Below are positions 4,978 to 41,853 of a DNA stretch of 64,000 nt, one piece after another. The position numbers and the translations under genes were made by a program. The number at the start of each line of letters is the position of its first letter. Within the stretch, counting starts at the first letter, position 1. A model generated the notes under the pieces. The model had not been told where the DNA came from and made no database searches. It saw only the letters and a program-made list of their open reading frames with translations. The DNA is from Candidatus Poribacteria bacterium (GTDB lineage Bacteria; Poribacteria; WGA-4E; JAJDTR01): the NCBI GenBank assembly GCA_965232235.1, contig OZ246960.1:871058-935057 (forward strand), in the 5' to 3' direction.

Positions 4978-5625
4978 TTATGAGCCAGCCGGGACAGATG
5001 CAAATCTGTGGCATGAGAGTAGGGCTAAATTGCGATACAACCCATAGCCATCAAGATAGAGATGATGTTCAAGAGGTACGGGACGCTCAAGTTCCTGAAC
5101 CACATCAATCTCGATCTCGCGGACGCTGCGCATCCAATCCCCGAACTGGTTGAGATTGGGTATGGTCGCGCTTAAACACGCAAATTTTATATGCTGTGGG
5201 GCGAAAATTATGCTCTCTTCCCATACCGTCCCTCGTTCAACATCGTTGATGTAATGAATCTCGTCGAATATTGCGTATTCTACATCCGCCAAGCGTTCTA
5301 TATCGTCGAAAATCGTGTTTCGGAAGATTTCCGTTGTCATCAACAGAATTTGGGCATAAGGATTGAGGACAACATCTCCCGTTAAAATACCGACCCGATC
5401 GCCATATCGCTCAAAGAAATCCCGATATTTTTGGTTGCTCAACGCTTTGATTGGCGCCGTGTAAATCACACGCCGATCGCCCTGAATGCATTTATCAACC
5501 GCATACTCCGCTACCACCGTTTTTCCCGCCCCGCTTGGAGCGGCGACAATCACAGAACGCTCATGATCTATTGCCCGGATAGCCTCTTCTTGGAACCGAT
5601 CTAGCTGTAAACCCCTGTAGAACAT
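4978..5625 (-). pseudogene. N-terminal fragment of a DEAD/DEAH-box (Ski2/Lhr-like) helicase
   Basis: Walker A APSGAGKT and DEIH box, but only about 200 aa; the reading frame ends at a 21-bp direct repeat (5022..5042) that recurs at 6052..6072. Confidence 0.55.
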
Positions 5626-5800: not shown

Positions 5801-5849
5801 TAGGATGGGGAGGAAATCTCTATCATCCCCCACACGGTAGGTGCGATCA

Positions 5850-29821: not shown

Positions 29822-30245
29822 GACCTCTATCGCGCTCATTATCCATTCGCTTGATTCTCCCACAATCGGGGAACAATAAGCTCTATCGGGATTGGATACC
29901 GTACCCAATGTCTCACGTGGCACTCCGCTGGAGTGCAGGAACTGGGACTTTTCCTTTCTATTGACATGCCGCCCCTCCGGGGCGGGGAGCCGCGTTCTGG
30001 AGGGGATCTCTGTGGGAACGCTATCGCGCTCATTATCCATTCGCTTGATCCTCCCACAATCGGGGAACAATAAGCTCTATCGGGATTGGATACCGTACCC
30101 AATGTCTCATATGGCACTCCGCTGGAGTGCAGGAATTGGGACTTTTCCTTTCTATTGACATGCCGCCCCTCCGGGGCGGGGAGTCGCGTTCTGGAGGGGA
30201 TCTCTGTGGGAACGCTATCGCGCTCATTATCCATTCGCTTGATCC
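29822..30245 (+). repeat. 194-bp tandem direct repeat (2.15 copies), each unit holding R1 + hairpin + ttctattgacat + GC hairpin
   Basis: The consensus starts at 29827, 30021 and 30215. Confidence 0.8.
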
Positions 30246-34629: not shown

Positions 34630-35019
34630 GTGAGCTCCTTTGATTGTTGGACCGTTATTCCGTCATGTGAATCACGAAGGTCGTTTGACGACATTTTAGC
34701 AGAAGCGGGAACTTTGAGCAACTTCAAAGCGACTGCCGCGGATGCCCAACACCCCTGAAATCGCCGAGTCGTCACATTTTTAGGTTTACATCACACATCA
34801 GATTCTGTTGCAAGTGGTTTGGCGATGCGTGCGCAGGTAGAAGTGTCGGTTGGGTTGTGCCGGCAAGGGAGTGGATAACGAGAGACCAGATGAGTTTGAA
34901 GTTTAGGACCACGTCCTTGTGAACGAGATTGCGACGAATCGTGGCACGGTTGAAGAAAGGAAATCAATCAGGGCAAGATGCCCCTCCTACATGTGGGAAA
35001 TAGGGAATGGCGGGCAGAA

Positions 35020-35130
35020 GATCTTTATCGCGCTCCTTATCCAGTCGCTTGATCCTACGAACGGAGTGGGGAATCGCGATTCGGCGATCGCTCCTACAGA
35101 AGGATGGCCCAGGTTCTTTATCGCGCGAGA
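35020..35130 (+). repeat. R1-family repeats at the left border of the lower-GC island
   Basis: gatctttatcgcgctccttatccagtcgcttgatcc. Confidence 0.5.
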
Positions 35131-35463
35131 CCAAAGTTGCCTGTGGCTGGAGGCGGGAACCGCGCCCCTACGGGAATTGGGGGAGGCAAGATACTCCAAT
35201 GTAACCGGGAATGAGTATGCCTGAGCACACTAAGGTAAATTGTTGTCCACCAACCTTGCTTGCTCAATGACTTGGCAGCAGACCCAGCAGAGAATTAGCG
35301 ATGTAGCCGAATATGGAATGCAAGTTGAGGTGTCGTGTATGTTAACTGCTAGAGTTAGTTAGAGGACGGAGCCGCGCGCACTCACACTGTAATTGATTGT
35401 GAAATCGGCAACGAAGTTAGACGTTTCGTTCCTTGCATTATCCCCGTATGTTCTGAAGGAAAG

Positions 35464-36261
35464 TTATTTGCTCACCGCGCGAACTATGCTGAAAAAACCG
35501 ATAATTAAAACGAAAGCGATGAGTATATTACCGTCCGGTTCGCGCTTTTTCGGTTTGGAGGGAGGTGGACGGGTGAACATGATTTTATTATCGATACTGC
35601 CGCCTTCCAGTATCACCCGTATGCTGTCTGTCGTCCCGGGGTAATATTGTGTCCATTGTGTGGATATGCCTGCTGGTAGGGAAGTCGGGGCGAAACTCTC
35701 GTAATATAAATTGTAAGGTAAGGCCTCCTTGTCGTGAAATTCGGTAATGATGGCAGCTTGTTCATAGGCACGATAAATACTAACAACCGCGTCAAAAATG
35801 CTGTCCACCAGTGTATCTCCATGCGAGGACGGATAAGAGGTGTTCAATCGGGCAATTTGCGCCGCCTCTCGCCAATTCCCGCCGTACAATTTATACATTA
35901 CATGATCAAGTGGTAGTGGTTTCACGATAGAATTCCTAGCATCAATGACCTGTAGCGGGTTGAACTCTAATAGGTAAGTGTTCGGATTGTTATTGCGACA
36001 AGAGACGCTAATGCCAATAAAGCTATTAGTGGAGTTCTCAAGTTGACGGAATTGCGTACAAATCATTTCGAACGTTAGTCCTTCGTTCTCTAACTTGCCA
36101 ATTTCGACCGTTGCACCGTGGATTTCCTGCGGTGTGTGCCACAGATGGGATTGCCATTGACGCGCATAAGGGGTAGTGCAACCCATTGTCAGGGTCACTA
36201 GAGTTAGAATGAGTAAGGCTTTCAATTCATGGGTCTCCTTTCGCCGGAAGCCAACAATCAT
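35464..36261 (-). CDS. hypothetical lipoprotein with a C-terminal hydrophobic anchor (island gene 4)
   Basis: Internal Met start gives MIVGFRRKETHELKALLILTLVTLTMGC; C-terminal ILIAFVLIIGFFSIV. Confidence 0.35.
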   Translation of the reverse strand: MIVGFRRKETHELKALLILTLVTLTMGCTTPYARQWQSHLWHTPQEIHGATVEIGKLENEGLTFEMICTQFRQLENSTNSFIGISVSCRNNNPNTYLLEFNPLQVIDARNSIVKPLPLDHVMYKLYGGNWREAAQIARLNTSYPSSHGDTLVDSIFDAVVSIYRAYEQAAIITEFHDKEALPYNLYYESFAPTSLPAGISTQWTQYYPGTTDSIRVILEGGSIDNKIMFTRPPPSKPKKREPDGNILIAFVLIIGFFSIVRAVSK

Positions 36262-36373
36262 CGGCAAATAGAAGCATTGTACCGAATAATTAATATGCCG
36301 GGACCAAACACGAGTTAAGGTGTCATACATGCCAGTCGTGGAAGAGCTAGTATTGGTGAAGTTGGGCATGGAA

Positions 36374-36871
36374 CTAATCGATTTCGAGCTCTATTGCGCG
36401 ACAGGTAAATGCGAAAGTACCAAAAACGTCATCGGCACGGCTTTTGCTGTTGGGATAGCCCAAAGCCACAATGCCGTGAGGGTATGGTGATTTCTGTACG
36501 CCAAATGCGACGTGGGCGGTGACACGAAAAGCATTTCGCTTGTCATCATACCATTTTACAACACTTGCGATCTTATGTAGGTCAATTTCAACATCGTCCA
36601 GGCTGTGCACAAACCTGTCGTTTACCGGACCATCGTTTAAGAGTTTTCGTTGCTGAATGTACGCAAATTCTTTGGTGCAAGGCCCTTTCAGAATGACGAC
36701 TTTTTCACGTTCATCTGCTAAACAGTTTAACGGCCCGCAATTATTCGGAAAATGTGCCAAGAGTTGATGACCGCTCTCATAGGGGTGGCATGTGATGCGT
36801 CGAATAAACCTAAGATTAATCAAAGCTTCGACGGGTATACAGGCAGCGCCGTTTGGAATTTTCAGGAACAT
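36374..36871 (-). CDS. hypothetical protein (165 aa, island gene 3)
   Basis: ORF track; lower GC. Confidence 0.35.
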   Translation of the reverse strand: MFLKIPNGAACIPVEALINLRFIRRITCHPYESGHQLLAHFPNNCGPLNCLADEREKVVILKGPCTKEFAYIQQRKLLNDGPVNDRFVHSLDDVEIDLHKIASVVKWYDDKRNAFRVTAHVAFGVQKSPYPHGIVALGYPNSKSRADDVFGTFAFTCRAIELEID

Positions 36872-37042
36872 AGAGGTGTAGCTCCGATTTGAGATTTAGG
36901 GGACAGTACGCGGCAGTTTCTCACAATGTAGTATATTTCCGATGGTCACTTTCCACGTCATCGTAACGCTTTGATACCGTGGTGGGCAATTTCTGCAATT
37001 CATCGGGTTTGAGAATGAAGATTGTAGCTACTGTCAACTTCG

Positions 37043-38212
37043 TCAACGCAGGCTCATAAGCTGGTATTTCGGCTTGGTGATTTCATCTGTGGTCTCATGT
37101 CTTTCGGTAATCTCTTGAATTCTTGCCGTGTACTCGGCGCTCATTCTTGCCGTGCTAATGGCCTCAATGGCTTCGTCAGCAATGGAGCCAGAATAGACTT
37201 TGCCATTAGCATCAATTTCGAATCTTTTGGATTTCAGAGACGCGCCTATTAGCGTACCGGTAATGGTAACCGTTGACGGATCTTCTTCTTGAAATCTCTG
37301 CAGAATTTCAATTACCTCCTGCATCTGCGTTTTGGACAGGTACGCGGCTCCGCCTCGTTCAGGATGTGGTGAGGTCCATGTGAGATTGGTGTCGCTTACG
37401 GATTCGGTGAGCGATTTTAGGAGTTTGGTATAGTTCTCTGCAACTCTTGTTCTGAGATGTCCAAGGAGTTTTTTGAGTTTGTCTTGGTCATTTCCGGCAT
37501 TGAGAAGTTCCAAGAATTTTTCGATCGCATCTCCGAAATCAGAATTACTGAAAAGGTCAACGTTTTCTGTGGACGCTAGTCGAATATCGAATGATCCTGC
37601 CCCAATTCCTATTAGTGAAATTTGCATCCTACGTCTGAGGTCCTCTGTGACTTGATTTAAGTTAAAGCATATCATTCCGACTGTGTTAATGACGTCTTGA
37701 AGTGTTCCAAGAATCTGGCTTAGGGCAGTGGCAGGTGCTTCTGTACCGAAGACGCCCTCAAAATTGAGAGTTAAATGCAGAATTTCTTGCCTTCTGGATT
37801 TCGCTATATTTTCGGGACTACTCAGCACCGGGAGCGTATTGGTTTTAATATTGAGACGTTCACCGGGGATTGGGAGCATGTCTTCAGAGATTTGATCGGG
37901 CAGGATGGAGTCGAATTCGATTTCGGTCTGACTGTCGTACGGAACTATTGCCTGGACCAAATAGCCATTCTCTGGATCAGCGAATGCGTGATGCAGGTCA
38001 ATTGCTCCGGCTCGAATGCAATTGAGACGTCCCTCGGAGACCGCACCGTACAGCCATGTCTCATTTTGCTCGTTTTCATCGGCGGCTACAACCAGGTAGA
38101 GATGTCCAGCAGCGTTCCTACAGGAAAAGAGGACTGGCTGATCGTAGTATTCGAAGGTTTCTAAAATTTCGAGTCTACCCAACACGCGGTTATTGAGTAA
38201 GTCATCCATCAT
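37043..38212 (-). CDS. hypothetical protein (389 aa, island gene 2)
   Basis: ORF track; lower GC. Confidence 0.4.
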   Translation of the reverse strand: MMDDLLNNRVLGRLEILETFEYYDQPVLFSCRNAAGHLYLVVAADENEQNETWLYGAVSEGRLNCIRAGAIDLHHAFADPENGYLVQAIVPYDSQTEIEFDSILPDQISEDMLPIPGERLNIKTNTLPVLSSPENIAKSRRQEILHLTLNFEGVFGTEAPATALSQILGTLQDVINTVGMICFNLNQVTEDLRRRMQISLIGIGAGSFDIRLASTENVDLFSNSDFGDAIEKFLELLNAGNDQDKLKKLLGHLRTRVAENYTKLLKSLTESVSDTNLTWTSPHPERGGAAYLSKTQMQEVIEILQRFQEEDPSTVTITGTLIGASLKSKRFEIDANGKVYSGSIADEAIEAISTARMSAEYTARIQEITERHETTDEITKPKYQLMSLR

Positions 38213-38242
38213 ATACCTCTGTGTTATTCGACTGTTCGCTAT

Positions 38243-38662
38243 CTAACTGTTGATAACGTTAAAAACAGTCCAAGGCTTTCCTTCAACGGGTACCCACCAA
38301 GTATGATGTGATTCCTCTTTTGACGGTGTGTGTTGAATCATGCCAAACGTTGGATTTAGACTACCTTTTGCAATCTGTCTGTTTTTGAATTTTCTGGACC
38401 GCTTCTTAAGTCGTTCCCGTAGTCGCTCGCTGTCTGATATGTCTCTATGGACGGAGAGTCCATAGATCTTGAGAGTTTTCTTTTTTATGGCTCCTCGTGG
38501 GTTTTCTTCAAAGACTGATTTGAAATCTTCTGCCCGTGCCGGGTCGTGTTTCACGAGGCGGTACACTTTTCCGGAAGCAGGTTCGGCTTCCGCTGGAGGA
38601 CAGTTTTCTGGAAAAAAATCTGGCCATGTCAACTTCGTAAGGCTGTCGCCCTCGTTATTCAC
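38243..38662 (-). CDS. hypothetical protein (139 aa, island gene 1)
   Basis: ORF track; basic C-terminal half. Confidence 0.35.
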   Translation of the reverse strand: MNNEGDSLTKLTWPDFFPENCPPAEAEPASGKVYRLVKHDPARAEDFKSVFEENPRGAIKKKTLKIYGLSVHRDISDSERLRERLKKRSRKFKNRQIAKGSLNPTFGMIQHTPSKEESHHTWWVPVEGKPWTVFNVINS

Positions 38663-39089
38663 TCGGTTGATCCTTTCATTTTATAGGTGATTGACTACCG
38701 AGTGTCGTCCTATCAGCCTTTTTGAACACTTCGGCAAATATACTATACATATATTAAGTTGTCAAGTCTATATTGGTGTGCGGATATAGACTCTGTAATT
38801 GGTACAGTTTTGGAGAGGGCACACATCACTGGGTGGCGTAACGCATCCTGTCGCTCAAATAACGTGCATAGTGTGCCAGAATGTCGAAGGTGCTGTCAAT
38901 GAAAAATGCCGTCACTGTCTACCCAATGCTTGTCGAATAGGCGCGTCTGTTGTAGCGCAGTCGGATTCGGAACGCCCGCGGTCTAGAGAGCCGAGTTTGA
39001 GCAGTTCTGCGGGAACAGAGCGGGACGTTTTCGGGGCGGGGCAAGATGCCCCTCCTACATGTGGGAAACAAGCCATGGTGGGCAGAAAA

Positions 39090-39270
39090 TCGCTATCGCG
39101 CTCATTATCCATTCGCTTGATCTCCGTCTGGAGTGGGGAGTCGCGATTCGGAGCGGATCTCTATCGCAGGATTTACTATCGCCCGGGATCAACTATCGGG
39201 ATTCACTATCGCGCTCATTATCCATTCGCTTGATCGTACGTTATTCACTCACTTGATTCTTATCAGCCGG
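39090..39270 (+). repeat. cluster of R1-family repeats
   Basis: At least four consecutive tatcgc..ttgatc units. Confidence 0.6.
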
Positions 39271-39479: not shown

Positions 39480-40112
39480 ATGCGGCTTGAAGTCGGTATC
39501 ATCGCGCTTGTTGCCGAAGTGTTGGGCGTTCCCGCCGATCGCAATGCACAATTCGATTGGCTGACGAACAAGCCGACAGCGGAGCATTTTGGAGAGCATT
39601 ACTCGAAAATTCTTCAACTCTTCGAGGAATTGGGCGGCGATAAGGACGGACTGATCGGGAAGGCGGACGGCTACTTGACTCCGGACGCCTATTTCGCGGA
39701 GCCTTATAACTTTATCTTTGAGTTTGACGAACTGCAGCACTTCACCGTCCCTCGGCAGAAAACGTTGGCGCTGTATCCGGCGGAGGTGTCGTTGGCGTAT
39801 GACCGGGGACAATACCTTCGGTTCTGCGCGGAATACCACGAGGCGGCGGTTCGGAAGGGAACGGATCGATTTCGGCGCAAAACCGCTGATTTCCCTTTCG
39901 TAAATGGACGCGCCGCGCAGCGCGCTTTCTTCGACACGTTTCGAGATTGGCTGCCGCCGCTGCACGGGCTTAGTCCGACGCTGCGCATCGCCGAGTTTGA
40001 AGTTGCCAAAGTCCTTCGCGGGGAGCTCACGGGCAAAGCCGCAAGGGAGTACGTCGCCGCATTACTGGAACCGCGGCTGGGGACGAGGTTTGAGCATACT
40101 TTTTCAAATTAG
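39480..40112 (+). CDS. hypothetical protein (210 aa)
   Basis: ORF track; FEFDELQH could be a PD-(D/E)xK-like motif, which is speculative. Confidence 0.3.
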   Translation: MRLEVGIIALVAEVLGVPADRNAQFDWLTNKPTAEHFGEHYSKILQLFEELGGDKDGLIGKADGYLTPDAYFAEPYNFIFEFDELQHFTVPRQKTLALYPAEVSLAYDRGQYLRFCAEYHEAAVRKGTDRFRRKTADFPFVNGRAAQRAFFDTFRDWLPPLHGLSPTLRIAEFEVAKVLRGELTGKAAREYVAALLEPRLGTRFEHTFSN

Positions 40113-41197: not shown

Positions 41198-41467
41198 ATG
41201 TCTTATAGCAATTACACGCCGCAAGAAATCGAATCAAGAGGTGAAGCCATATACGTCCGGCAGATTCGAGACAAGGTGAATCCCGATCACAAAGGCAAGT
41301 TCGTCGTCATCGACATTGAAACGGGTGAATACGAGGTAAATGAAGACGACTTGGCAGCTACAAAACAGTTGCTTACACATTGTCCCGATGCCGTGATTTA
41401 CGGTTTGCGGATTGGGTTTCCCACCGCTTATCGAATCGGTAGCGGATTTGCAGCGAAAACAGAATGA
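41198..41467 (+). CDS. hypothetical small protein (89 aa), translationally coupled to the protease gene
   Basis: ATGA overlap with the next ORF. Confidence 0.35.
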   Translation: MSYSNYTPQEIESRGEAIYVRQIRDKVNPDHKGKFVVIDIETGEYEVNEDDLAATKQLLTHCPDAVIYGLRIGFPTAYRIGSGFAAKTE

Positions 41468-41853
41468 TCACAGGACGTGTGTCAGCCAACCGCGAAGCCA
41501 TCATAGAATTGGAAATTGTTCCTTCAAATCGGAAAAACGAAACAGTTGAAGTGGCGATTGATACTGGTTTCGATGGTTACCTCACCTTACCGAGAAATAT
41601 CGTTAAACGCCTCAAACTTCAACCGGCGGGAAATCGACGTGCCACTCTTGGAGACGGGAATACGGTTGTGTTAGATGTGTATCTTGCGAAAGTATTGTGG
41701 CATAGGAAAGAACGGGAAATCCTTGTGTTGCAAGCAGAGGGTGGTCCGTTGGTCGGGATGTCGTTGCTTAATGGAAATCGTGTGACAATAATGGTTGTAA
41801 CCGGTGGTGCCGTAACGATAGCGCCCGTGGGGCAGATTAAGCGCGTTTTCTGA
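41464..41853 (+). CDS. retropepsin-like (clan AA) aspartic peptidase domain protein
   Basis: AIDTGFDGYLTLP DTG motif; about 130 aa. Confidence 0.55.
   Translation: MITGRVSANREAIIELEIVPSNRKNETVEVAIDTGFDGYLTLPRNIVKRLKLQPAGNRRATLGDGNTVVLDVYLAKVLWHRKEREILVLQAEGGPLVGMSLLNGNRVTIMVVTGGAVTIAPVGQIKRVF

Follow-up and report, generated by a model that had tools for sequence, protein, structure and literature searches.

A putative PD-T4-10-type gene pair and two separate accessory genes at a low-GC locus of Candidatus Poribacteria

Genes and composition of the locus

The 64-kb stretch of Candidatus Poribacteria DNA analyzed here (the window) contains four adjacent genes on the minus strand, which we refer to as g1 to g4; the genome stretches compared with the window are labeled L001 and so forth. 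The first gene, g1 (38243-38662), starts with GTG and encodes a PD-T4-10_A-like small protein of 139 aa, a putative antitoxin or partner. It is followed by g2 (37043-38212, 389 aa), which consists of a DUF6575 head and a PDC-M63B-like body, by g3 (36374-36871), which encodes a rare small soluble protein of 165 aa, and by g4 (35464-36261), which encodes a conserved lipoprotein of 265 aa. The list of open reading frames (ORFs) agrees with the four co-directional genes described in the initial annotation, which had proposed a novel accessory or defense island. Our best reading is that three independent pieces (g1-g2, g3 and g4) make up a small accessory region here, and not one four-gene system. 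In particular, g1 and g2 probably form a toxin-antitoxin (TA) or abortive-infection (Abi) module of the PD-T4-10 type, in which the body is M63B-like and ends in an oligonucleotide/oligosaccharide-binding fold (OB-fold), beside two independently inserted accessory genes.

Only g1 and g2 were found to lie close together, with a gap of 30 nt; the g2-g3 and g3-g4 gaps measured 171 and 112 nt, so that the compact operon-like layout first described does not extend to all four genes. Shine-Dalgarno-like sequences were present ahead of the g1 GTG (AAAGGA) and 6 nt ahead of the g2 ATG (AGAGG). A candidate sigma-70-like promoter for g1-g2 (38737-38765, minus strand; TTGACA, 17 nt, TATATT; 11 of 12 matches) was located approximately 75 nt 5' of the g1 GTG; it was identified by consensus match alone, and promoter-like sequences in the region as a whole were no more numerous than the shuffle expectation. 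Judged by the short gap, the Shine-Dalgarno sequences and the promoter match, g1 and g2 look like one operon in the window. An in-frame TTG at 38632 is an alternative start for g1, which would give a 129-aa protein with the family-typical MTWPDF start. The longest ORF of g4 extends to 36369, and the start at 36261 was favored by the family alignment.

The composition of the region is unusual, as the initial annotation had noted. The GC content of 35464-38662 was 0.46, which is the minimum of the window for a 3.2-kb segment (mean 0.528, standard deviation 0.023) and is matched by 1% of 3.2-kb windows. The GC content at third codon positions (GC3) was 0.44-0.50 in g1-g4, compared with 0.65-0.73 in four flanking genes, and all four genes are compositionally foreign-looking. 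No tRNA gene was found within 28-46 kb of the window, and the ORF list and a Pfam scan revealed no integrase- or transposase-like ORF among the local ORFs.

The g1-g2 pair and its modular relatives

Upon comparison with the PADLOC profiles, which had been suggested as a check, matches were obtained for g1 and g2 and none for g3 or g4. The g1 protein matched PD-T4-10_A with an E-value of 3.9e-7 and 27.9 bits over profile positions 24-136 of 148 (113 positions), and the scores of g1-family members against this profile ranged from 9e-7 to 1e-3. Searches of Pfam, NCBIfam and PDB sequence profiles gave no match for g1. In the 34-member family alignment, W13, P14, C21, P22, S70, G107, T112, H119, W122 and W123 were invariant, and the family motifs were WPxFYPxNCPP, ASGxVYRLV, GxSV and SHHTWW. 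An ART/RES-like reading of YRLV, GxSV and SHHTWW was dropped, as nothing was found in its support.

Three profile matches describe g2. Residues 5-181 matched Pfam DUF6575 (PF20215) with an E-value of 7e-27 (94.7 bits, cut-off 26.6), residues 14-115 matched positions 17-115 of 353 in PADLOC PD-T4-10_B (1.3e-4), and residues 138-387 matched positions 57-308 of 326, approximately 77%, of PDC-M63B (1.6e-20). The earlier statement that no motif could be assigned is thus superseded for g1 and g2. None of the four genes had an NCBIfam match, and PHROGs gave for g2 only a weak match to a family of unknown function.

The AlphaFold2 model of g2, built from 90 homologs with a mean predicted local distance difference test (pLDDT) score of 84.8, is composed of three predicted domains. 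The head (residues 1-120; 37853-38212, minus strand) is β-rich with a pLDDT of approximately 80-90 and corresponds to DUF6575 and the N-terminal part of PD-T4-10_B. A linker predicted to be disordered (residues 123-129) leads to a middle α/β domain (residues 133-304; 37301-37816, minus strand), which forms the first part of the PDC-M63B-like body. The C-terminal domain (residues 305-389 and the stop codon; 37043-37300, minus strand) is predicted to be an OB-fold with the topology β1-β2-β3-helix-β4-β5 over residues 307-388. A fold search with the model recognized the OB-fold as the sole known fold, and the middle domain had no counterpart in the PDB; PDB sequence-profile searches with g2 gave nothing significant. 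A specific catalytic toxin mechanism for g2 was rejected, as neither the fold search nor the profile searches supported one. The one structural clue that this model gives to the putative toxicity of g2 is the OB-fold, through which g2 could bind nucleic acids.

The closest characterized relative, PD-T4-10, came from a functional selection performed in E. coli; its two ORFs overlap, and DUF6575 is among its domains (PMC9519451). The B protein is toxic, A neutralizes B and cannot be deleted, and the system gives abortive-infection protection against T-even phages (PMC9519451). Its mechanism was reported as unknown (PMC9519451), and it was still listed as of 'unknown function' in a 2024 survey. 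In the system of E. coli ECOR65 (Vassallo et al. 2022; RCO36089.1/RCO36088.1), a small A gene lies 5' of a B gene of approximately 390 aa, which is the same order as in g1-g2, and the total spans are 1,604 bp in ECOR65 and 1,620 bp in the window. The two pairs have in common a homologous A, a DUF6575 head on B and an accessory or mobile distribution. They differ in the body, as residues ~133-389 of g2 had no PD-T4-10_B match and matched PDC-M63B instead, and in the host, which for g1-g2 is a sponge-symbiont Poribacterium with a greatly expanded family. PDC-M63 is a PADLOC candidate system of two genes, A and B, which is prophage-borne in E. coli NILS69. Its B protein is matched by the g2 body; however, g2 carries an additional N-terminal DUF6575 head and g1 has no PDC-M63A match. 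A full PADLOC scan gave no PDC-M63A match at E ≤ 1 for g1, g3 or g4.

The g2 protein has at least 264 homologs, and the best 120 were all full-length (374-399 aa) with 53-100% identity. Exact-sequence look-ups with g2 and with its 388-aa form gave no record. A scan of GTDB species representatives revealed 93 g1/DUF6575 relatives, from which 80 loci were kept (L008-L087). Almost all of these loci are titled Candidatus Poribacteria, a sponge-symbiont lineage, and several genomes contained multiple copies, up to three in OZ244821 (L041, L056 and L071). The g1/DUF6575 family is therefore massively expanded in Candidatus Poribacteria. An intact g1 homolog was found directly 5' of g2-family ORFs with a modal gap of 30-31 nt, although its frequency differed among the g2 classes. 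Full-length proteins of 358-408 aa were found in 18 loci, 16 of which had an intact adjacent g1, and giant fusions of approximately 1,770 aa in three, all with g1. Heads with a C-terminal tail (189-221 aa) occurred in 13 loci, 8 with an intact g1, and heads alone (125-154 aa) in 47, 18 with an intact g1. The head-only ORFs fell into discrete, conserved lengths, with 10 loci at 129 aa and 11 at 151-152 aa; such regularity suggests standalone heads that are functional rather than products of random truncation. A conserved effector gene 3' of the head-only ORFs was considered and rejected, as the downstream ORFs do not cluster.

Related pairs were also found in other lineages. An Anaerolineales metagenome-assembled genome (L024) contained a pair in which both proteins are 36% identical to those of the window. 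In the Oscillatoria conjugative plasmid pOSC7112.01, the genes of the pair are separated by 9 nt and the A protein had an hhalign probability of 99.8%. On the Arthrobacter plasmid pA58H3 (NZ_MH067976.1), we found an unannotated A-like ORF of 138 aa (L091, 4558-4974), which overlaps an annotated DUF6575 gene by 4 nt and carries the g1 motifs GTVYRL, GHSVF and SHHDWW; judged by these motifs, it is probably a PD-T4-10_A-like gene missed in public annotation. A pair with a 4-nt overlap was also present in a plasmid-borne prophage of Rahnella, where it occupies a moron site between the antiterminator Q and holin/lysozyme genes. By hhalign, the Rahnella A protein matched g1 at 98.4% and the head of B matched that of g2 at 95.7%, and the B body was unrelated. 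Because the head and A recur with unrelated bodies, A and the DUF6575 head constitute the conserved core of the family, and the body is exchangeable. The presence of A beside the head whatever the body points to an interaction between the two.

The most extensive change of body was observed in three Poribacteria loci, where the head (residues ~11-127) is N-terminal on a complete Type ISP restriction-modification enzyme of approximately 1,770 aa (L056, 7580-13280; L050, 1704-7443; L057, 2706-8424). These fusions contained Mrr_cat_2, ResIII/Helicase_C, ISP_coupler, N6_Mtase/Eco57I and Type_ISP_C domains with E-values down to 1e-91, and a g1-like gene lies 16 nt 5' of each. Type ISP enzymes are of the LlaGI/LlaBIII type; the fusions share with g1-g2 the g1-like gene and the head, whereas the body consists of the Mrr nuclease, helicase, coupler, methylase and target-recognition domain, none of which is present in g2. 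In L053 and L081, Type ISP genes were additionally found directly 5' of a g1/head pair. We found no literature on a link between DUF6575 and Type ISP enzymes, and the only mentions of DUF6575 that we found were in the Vassallo study.

The conservation of A and the head across unrelated bodies, including a complete Type ISP enzyme, would also suit a portable sensor or regulator cassette that switches the attached effector, with g1 as a co-sensor or activator and not an inhibitor. The discrete lengths of the head-only forms, which suggest a standalone function, agree with such a cassette, and the Cys, His, Ser, Thr and Trp residues that are invariant in g1 resemble those of an enzyme or ligand-binder more than those of a typical labile antitoxin. 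However, the E. coli A protein neutralizes the toxicity of B and cannot be deleted, which fits an inhibitor, and nothing in the analysis bears directly on sensing. We regard the cassette as a doubtful alternative, and the PD-T4-10-type module, with g1 as the putative inhibitor, is retained as the preferred reading.

The site in related genomes and the genes g3 and g4

In related Poribacteria, the recurring gene order is PALP, DUF7255, g1-g2, a periplasmic binding protein and an ABC ATPase. Intact g1-g2 pairs occupy the site of the window in L001 and L008, and in L002/L009 the pair has this binding-protein gene as its neighbor, but its left flank differs. The site is occupied by g1 and a 125-aa head in L030 and by a 125-aa head remnant only in L029, L032 and L037, where L032 keeps just the last 22 residues of g1. 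The flanking genes were 90-95% identical in the relatives irrespective of whether the pair was intact or decayed. Relative to its neighbor, the pair diverges faster: identities to relatives were 85/57% for g1 and 75/69% for g2, compared with 93/89% for the binding protein. The GC content of g1-g2 in relatives was equally low, at approximately 0.45. Because the same site holds an intact or decayed pair between conserved flanks and the pair diverges rapidly, g1-g2 was acquired at this site long ago as an accessory unit and is now breaking down in some lineages; it represents neither a recent insertion nor a housekeeping unit. The foreign composition agrees with the horizontal acquisition proposed earlier, although the occurrence of g1-g2 at one site in several relatives shows that its arrival was not recent.

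These comparisons also bear on the possibility that the genes are ordinary housekeeping or regulatory genes, such as nucleic-acid-binding factors tied to the ABC sugar transporter, whose low GC is incidental. The shared binding-protein neighbor of g1-g2 in L001, L002 and L008 and the predicted OB-fold of g2 would fit such a role; however, in L029, L032 and L037 the site has only a decayed pair or none, while the transporter genes are still 91-95% identical. Multiple copies, varied contexts, carriage on plasmids of other phyla, atypical GC3 and matches to defense profiles further oppose it, and we consider this explanation extremely improbable.

A DUF7255 protein (Pfam, 6e-7) is encoded at 39480-40112 on the plus strand, divergent from g1. 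Every syntenic relative, including those with a decayed g1-g2, retains its gene next to PALP (cysteine-synthase-like), and DUF7255 is thus placed outside the g1-g2 module.

The history of g3 and g4 is different. Blastn collinearity of the window with L001, L008, L002, L032 and L037 extends from 38912 to 37042, where it breaks, and resumes at approximately 34822-34860. The window-specific segment (34823-37041, no strand assigned) contains g3, g4 and one R1 repeat cluster; this segment of approximately 2.2 kb is missing from all syntenic relatives, where approximately 240 bp stand in its place. Because g3-g4 is specific to the window and g1-g2 is present in relatives, the parts of the block differ in history and were not gained in one event. 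The expectation that the island would be missing from related genomes thus holds for the g3-g4 segment, whereas g1-g2 is present at the site of relatives, intact or as a remnant.

The g3 family is rare. Six cluster representatives, all of 141-165 aa, were found among 1.84 billion proteins, a search of 5.8 billion gave three matches, and scans of Pfam, PADLOC and NCBIfam revealed no family match. The alignment contained only nine invariant columns and no catalytic pattern. The closest homolog, P0159 (56% identity), is encoded directly 3' of GmrSD-type (type IV restriction) genes in L088 (783-2208) and L089 (4985-7519); the homolog is the same protein in both, and this is effectively one context. 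Other g3 homologs were found after a leucine-rich-repeat protein (L093) and near DUF4020-containing genes (L094). L089 also encodes a DUF7380/DUF4209 protein upstream.

The g4 family comprised 37 matches with 42-80% identity and had no Pfam domain. The lipobox Cys28, which follows a hydrophobic stretch, was invariant in 36 of 36 aligned sequences; the family also has two more conserved Cys residues, a linker rich in Pro and a hydrophobic (transmembrane) anchor at the C-terminus. Judged by its signal peptide, lipobox and invariant Cys, g4 has the sequence features of a bacterial lipoprotein, and its first description as a lipoprotein with a C-terminal anchor agrees with the family alignment. 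The core of the g4 model (pLDDT 68, moderate confidence) is predicted to be an immunoglobulin (Ig)-like β-sandwich with a helical insert of approximately 60 residues. The closest folds were those of Ig-like β-sandwich lipoproteins from Bacillus and Staphylococcus (PDB 4les, YjhA 3cfu, YcdA 4r4g and 3qfg), with which g4 shares 6-11% sequence identity and from which it is set apart by the helical insert, the Pro-rich linker and the transmembrane anchor. A PDB sequence-profile search with g4 gave nothing significant, PADLOC gave no match at E ≤ 1, including PD-Lambda-6 and other lipoprotein defense genes, and IMG/VR contained no match. A metagenome scan added one further locus only.

Several g4 homologs lie within or alongside type I CRISPR-Cas loci (L004 and L005-7). 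In L004 (5417-13988), the g4-family gene lies between cas1 and the type I cas7/cas3 genes; in L005/L006 (2881-8529), it lies by cas4-cas2-cas1 together with BrnT/BrnA and DUF5615 TA modules; and in L098 (8001-9893), it is convergent with cas6. The cas1 genes of L004 and L005 are 92% identical and are not independent, and the arrangement may be one ancestral arrangement rather than a repeated association. No cas genes adjoin the g4 family in L003, L099 or the window, and such inconsistent adjacency does not support g4 as a CRISPR-associated accessory gene. A conserved small partner gene 5' of g4 was rejected, as the ~80-aa ORFs of L005 and L098 are unrelated. In the window, positions 5218-5625 (minus strand) were weakly similar to the helicase part of the L004 Cas3 (E 1.5e-8, 30% over 163 aa), which probably reflects a generic DEAD/ResIII helicase.

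None of the 87 loci with g1/g2 homologs contained g3 or g4, and outside the window neither g3, g1 nor g2 was found at g4 loci, nor g4 at g3 loci. As g3, g4 and g1-g2 do not co-occur elsewhere, g3 and g4 are independent accessory genes. This result bears directly on the initial proposal of a single system, in which g1 would be a small partner, g2 a large soluble sensor, g3 an adaptor and g4 a membrane-anchored effector. The genes do form a contiguous, co-directional block with a common low GC (0.46) and GC3, and homologs of g3 and g4 sometimes lie near GmrSD or cas genes. However, g3 and g4 never occur together elsewhere or with g1/g2 (0 of 87 loci), syntenic relatives have g1-g2 beside the binding-protein gene with ~240 bp in place of g3-g4, and gaps of 171 and 112 nt separate g3 from its neighbors. 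An integrated four-gene defense system is therefore very unlikely. Guilt by association gives a weak hint of a defense role for g3 or g4.

The R1 repeats at the flanks of the region had been taken as borders of the island. Clusters were indeed found downstream (34971-35130, plus strand; a core copy) and upstream (39039-39258, plus strand; two to three core copies), and an 84-nt direct repeat links 34971-35054 with 39039-39122 at 88% identity. The core, ATCGCGCTCATTATCCATTCGCTTGATC, is 28-32 nt long; its ~32-nt form is CTATCGCGCTCATTATCCATTCGCTTGATC, and its flanks are variable. At up to three mismatches, 11 copies occurred across the window, where none was expected by chance, including a tandem trio at 29829, 30023 and 30217 (29829-30244) with a 194-nt period and copies at 5845, 17915, 54920, 58145 and 59540. 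The upstream cluster is largely missing in L001 and L008, whereas L029, L030 and L037 each have one copy in the corresponding intergenic position. Because the copies are dispersed over the window, R1 is a genome-wide interspersed intergenic repeat and does not mark an island border. R1 had no match in Rfam, and with dispersed copies at spacings of 113-194 nt, att-like borders and a CRISPR-like array were both rejected. It is possibly REP-like (repetitive extragenic palindrome), MITE-like (miniature inverted-repeat transposable element) or a protein-binding site.

Further upstream of g1, at 41198-41853 on the plus strand, ORFs of 89 and 129 aa overlap by 4 nt in a second local GC dip of 0.46-0.47. 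The 129-aa ORF had a weak retropepsin-like aspartyl-protease match below the cut-off (PF13975, E 0.005), and the two could be another small TA-like accessory pair.

A possible role of the g1-g2 module

The defense or toxin flavor attributed to the region at the outset is retained for g1-g2, through its homology to the validated PD-T4-10 system, and not for a novel four-gene system. By analogy with E. coli PD-T4-10, g2 would be toxic and g1 would neutralize it. In the mechanism that we propose, g1 would bind the DUF6575 head of g2 and thereby hold the body inactive, and phage infection would lift this restraint. The freed body would then arrest the cell, probably by nucleic-acid binding through the predicted OB-fold, and the infection would be aborted. 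Insertion of g3 and g4 between g2 and the sugar-binding-protein gene took place in the lineage of the window only. What the analysis shows is the homologies, the conserved pairing of A with B, the synteny with the window-specific insertion, the composition and the domain architecture; toxicity and neutralization are carried over from E. coli PD-T4-10, and contact between A and the head, the part played by the OB-fold and a defense role in Poribacteria are inferred.

Several observations weigh against this reading of g1-g2. The PD-T4-10 profile matches of the pair are modest overall, and that of g2 to PD-T4-10_B covers the head only, 28% of the profile, with a body of the PDC-M63B type that is unlike the PD-T4-10_B body. 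The E. coli PD-T4-10 genes overlap, whereas g1 and g2 are 30 nt apart. The fold search with g2 did not recognize a nuclease, NADase, kinase, HEPN or pore-forming fold, and the profile searches with g1 gave no DNA-binding or known antitoxin fold. Many head-only ORFs occur without g1, and the dependence between A and the head is thus not absolute. Phage records contained no match for g2, and viral contigs contained two weak matches to the head. Additionally, PDC-M63AB showed no defense activity in one published test (bioRxiv 10.1101/2024.12.20.629700).

The last result, from the only test of that system, is also what would be expected if g1-g2 were a selfish addiction TA module with no antiviral role in Poribacteria, kept and multiplied because its loss kills the cell. 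The TA-like architecture and plasmid carriage fit such a module, as do the expansion to several copies and the frequent decay among them, a pattern typical of selfish TA dynamics. Nevertheless, the closest characterized relative, PD-T4-10, defends against phage, and the head and A are fused to or adjoin Type ISP enzymes and occur at a prophage moron site, all of which are defense contexts. Selfish and defense roles are not mutually exclusive, and a purely selfish pair appears to us unlikely, although a real contender. We therefore continue to favor the PD-T4-10-type defense module.

For the window itself, the message is modest: the locus holds a known kind of module and two unrelated accessory genes. 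For the PD-T4-10 family, the comparison makes the parts separable into a conserved A, a conserved DUF6575 head and swappable bodies of four types, namely PD-T4-10_B, the M63B-like/OB-fold body of g2, the unrelated Rahnella body and full Type ISP enzymes. This domain dissection shows which parts to probe for neutralization and which for killing, and the locus connects two separate PADLOC entries, PD-T4-10 and PDC-M63. Sponge symbionts, including Poribacteria, have been reported to be enriched in defense genes, and the expansion of the family fits this heavy investment (PMC5649159, PMC5099237). More tentatively, g1 and the DUF6575 head may be a portable two-part switch that senses phage infection or an anti-restriction attack and controls interchangeable effectors, here a previously uncharacterized OB-fold body that would kill or arrest the cell by binding nucleic acid and in other Poribacteria a complete Type ISP enzyme; we put this forward as a possibility rather than as the probable case. 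If true, PD-T4-10 would be the founding member of a modular defense superfamily with a massive expansion among sponge symbionts.

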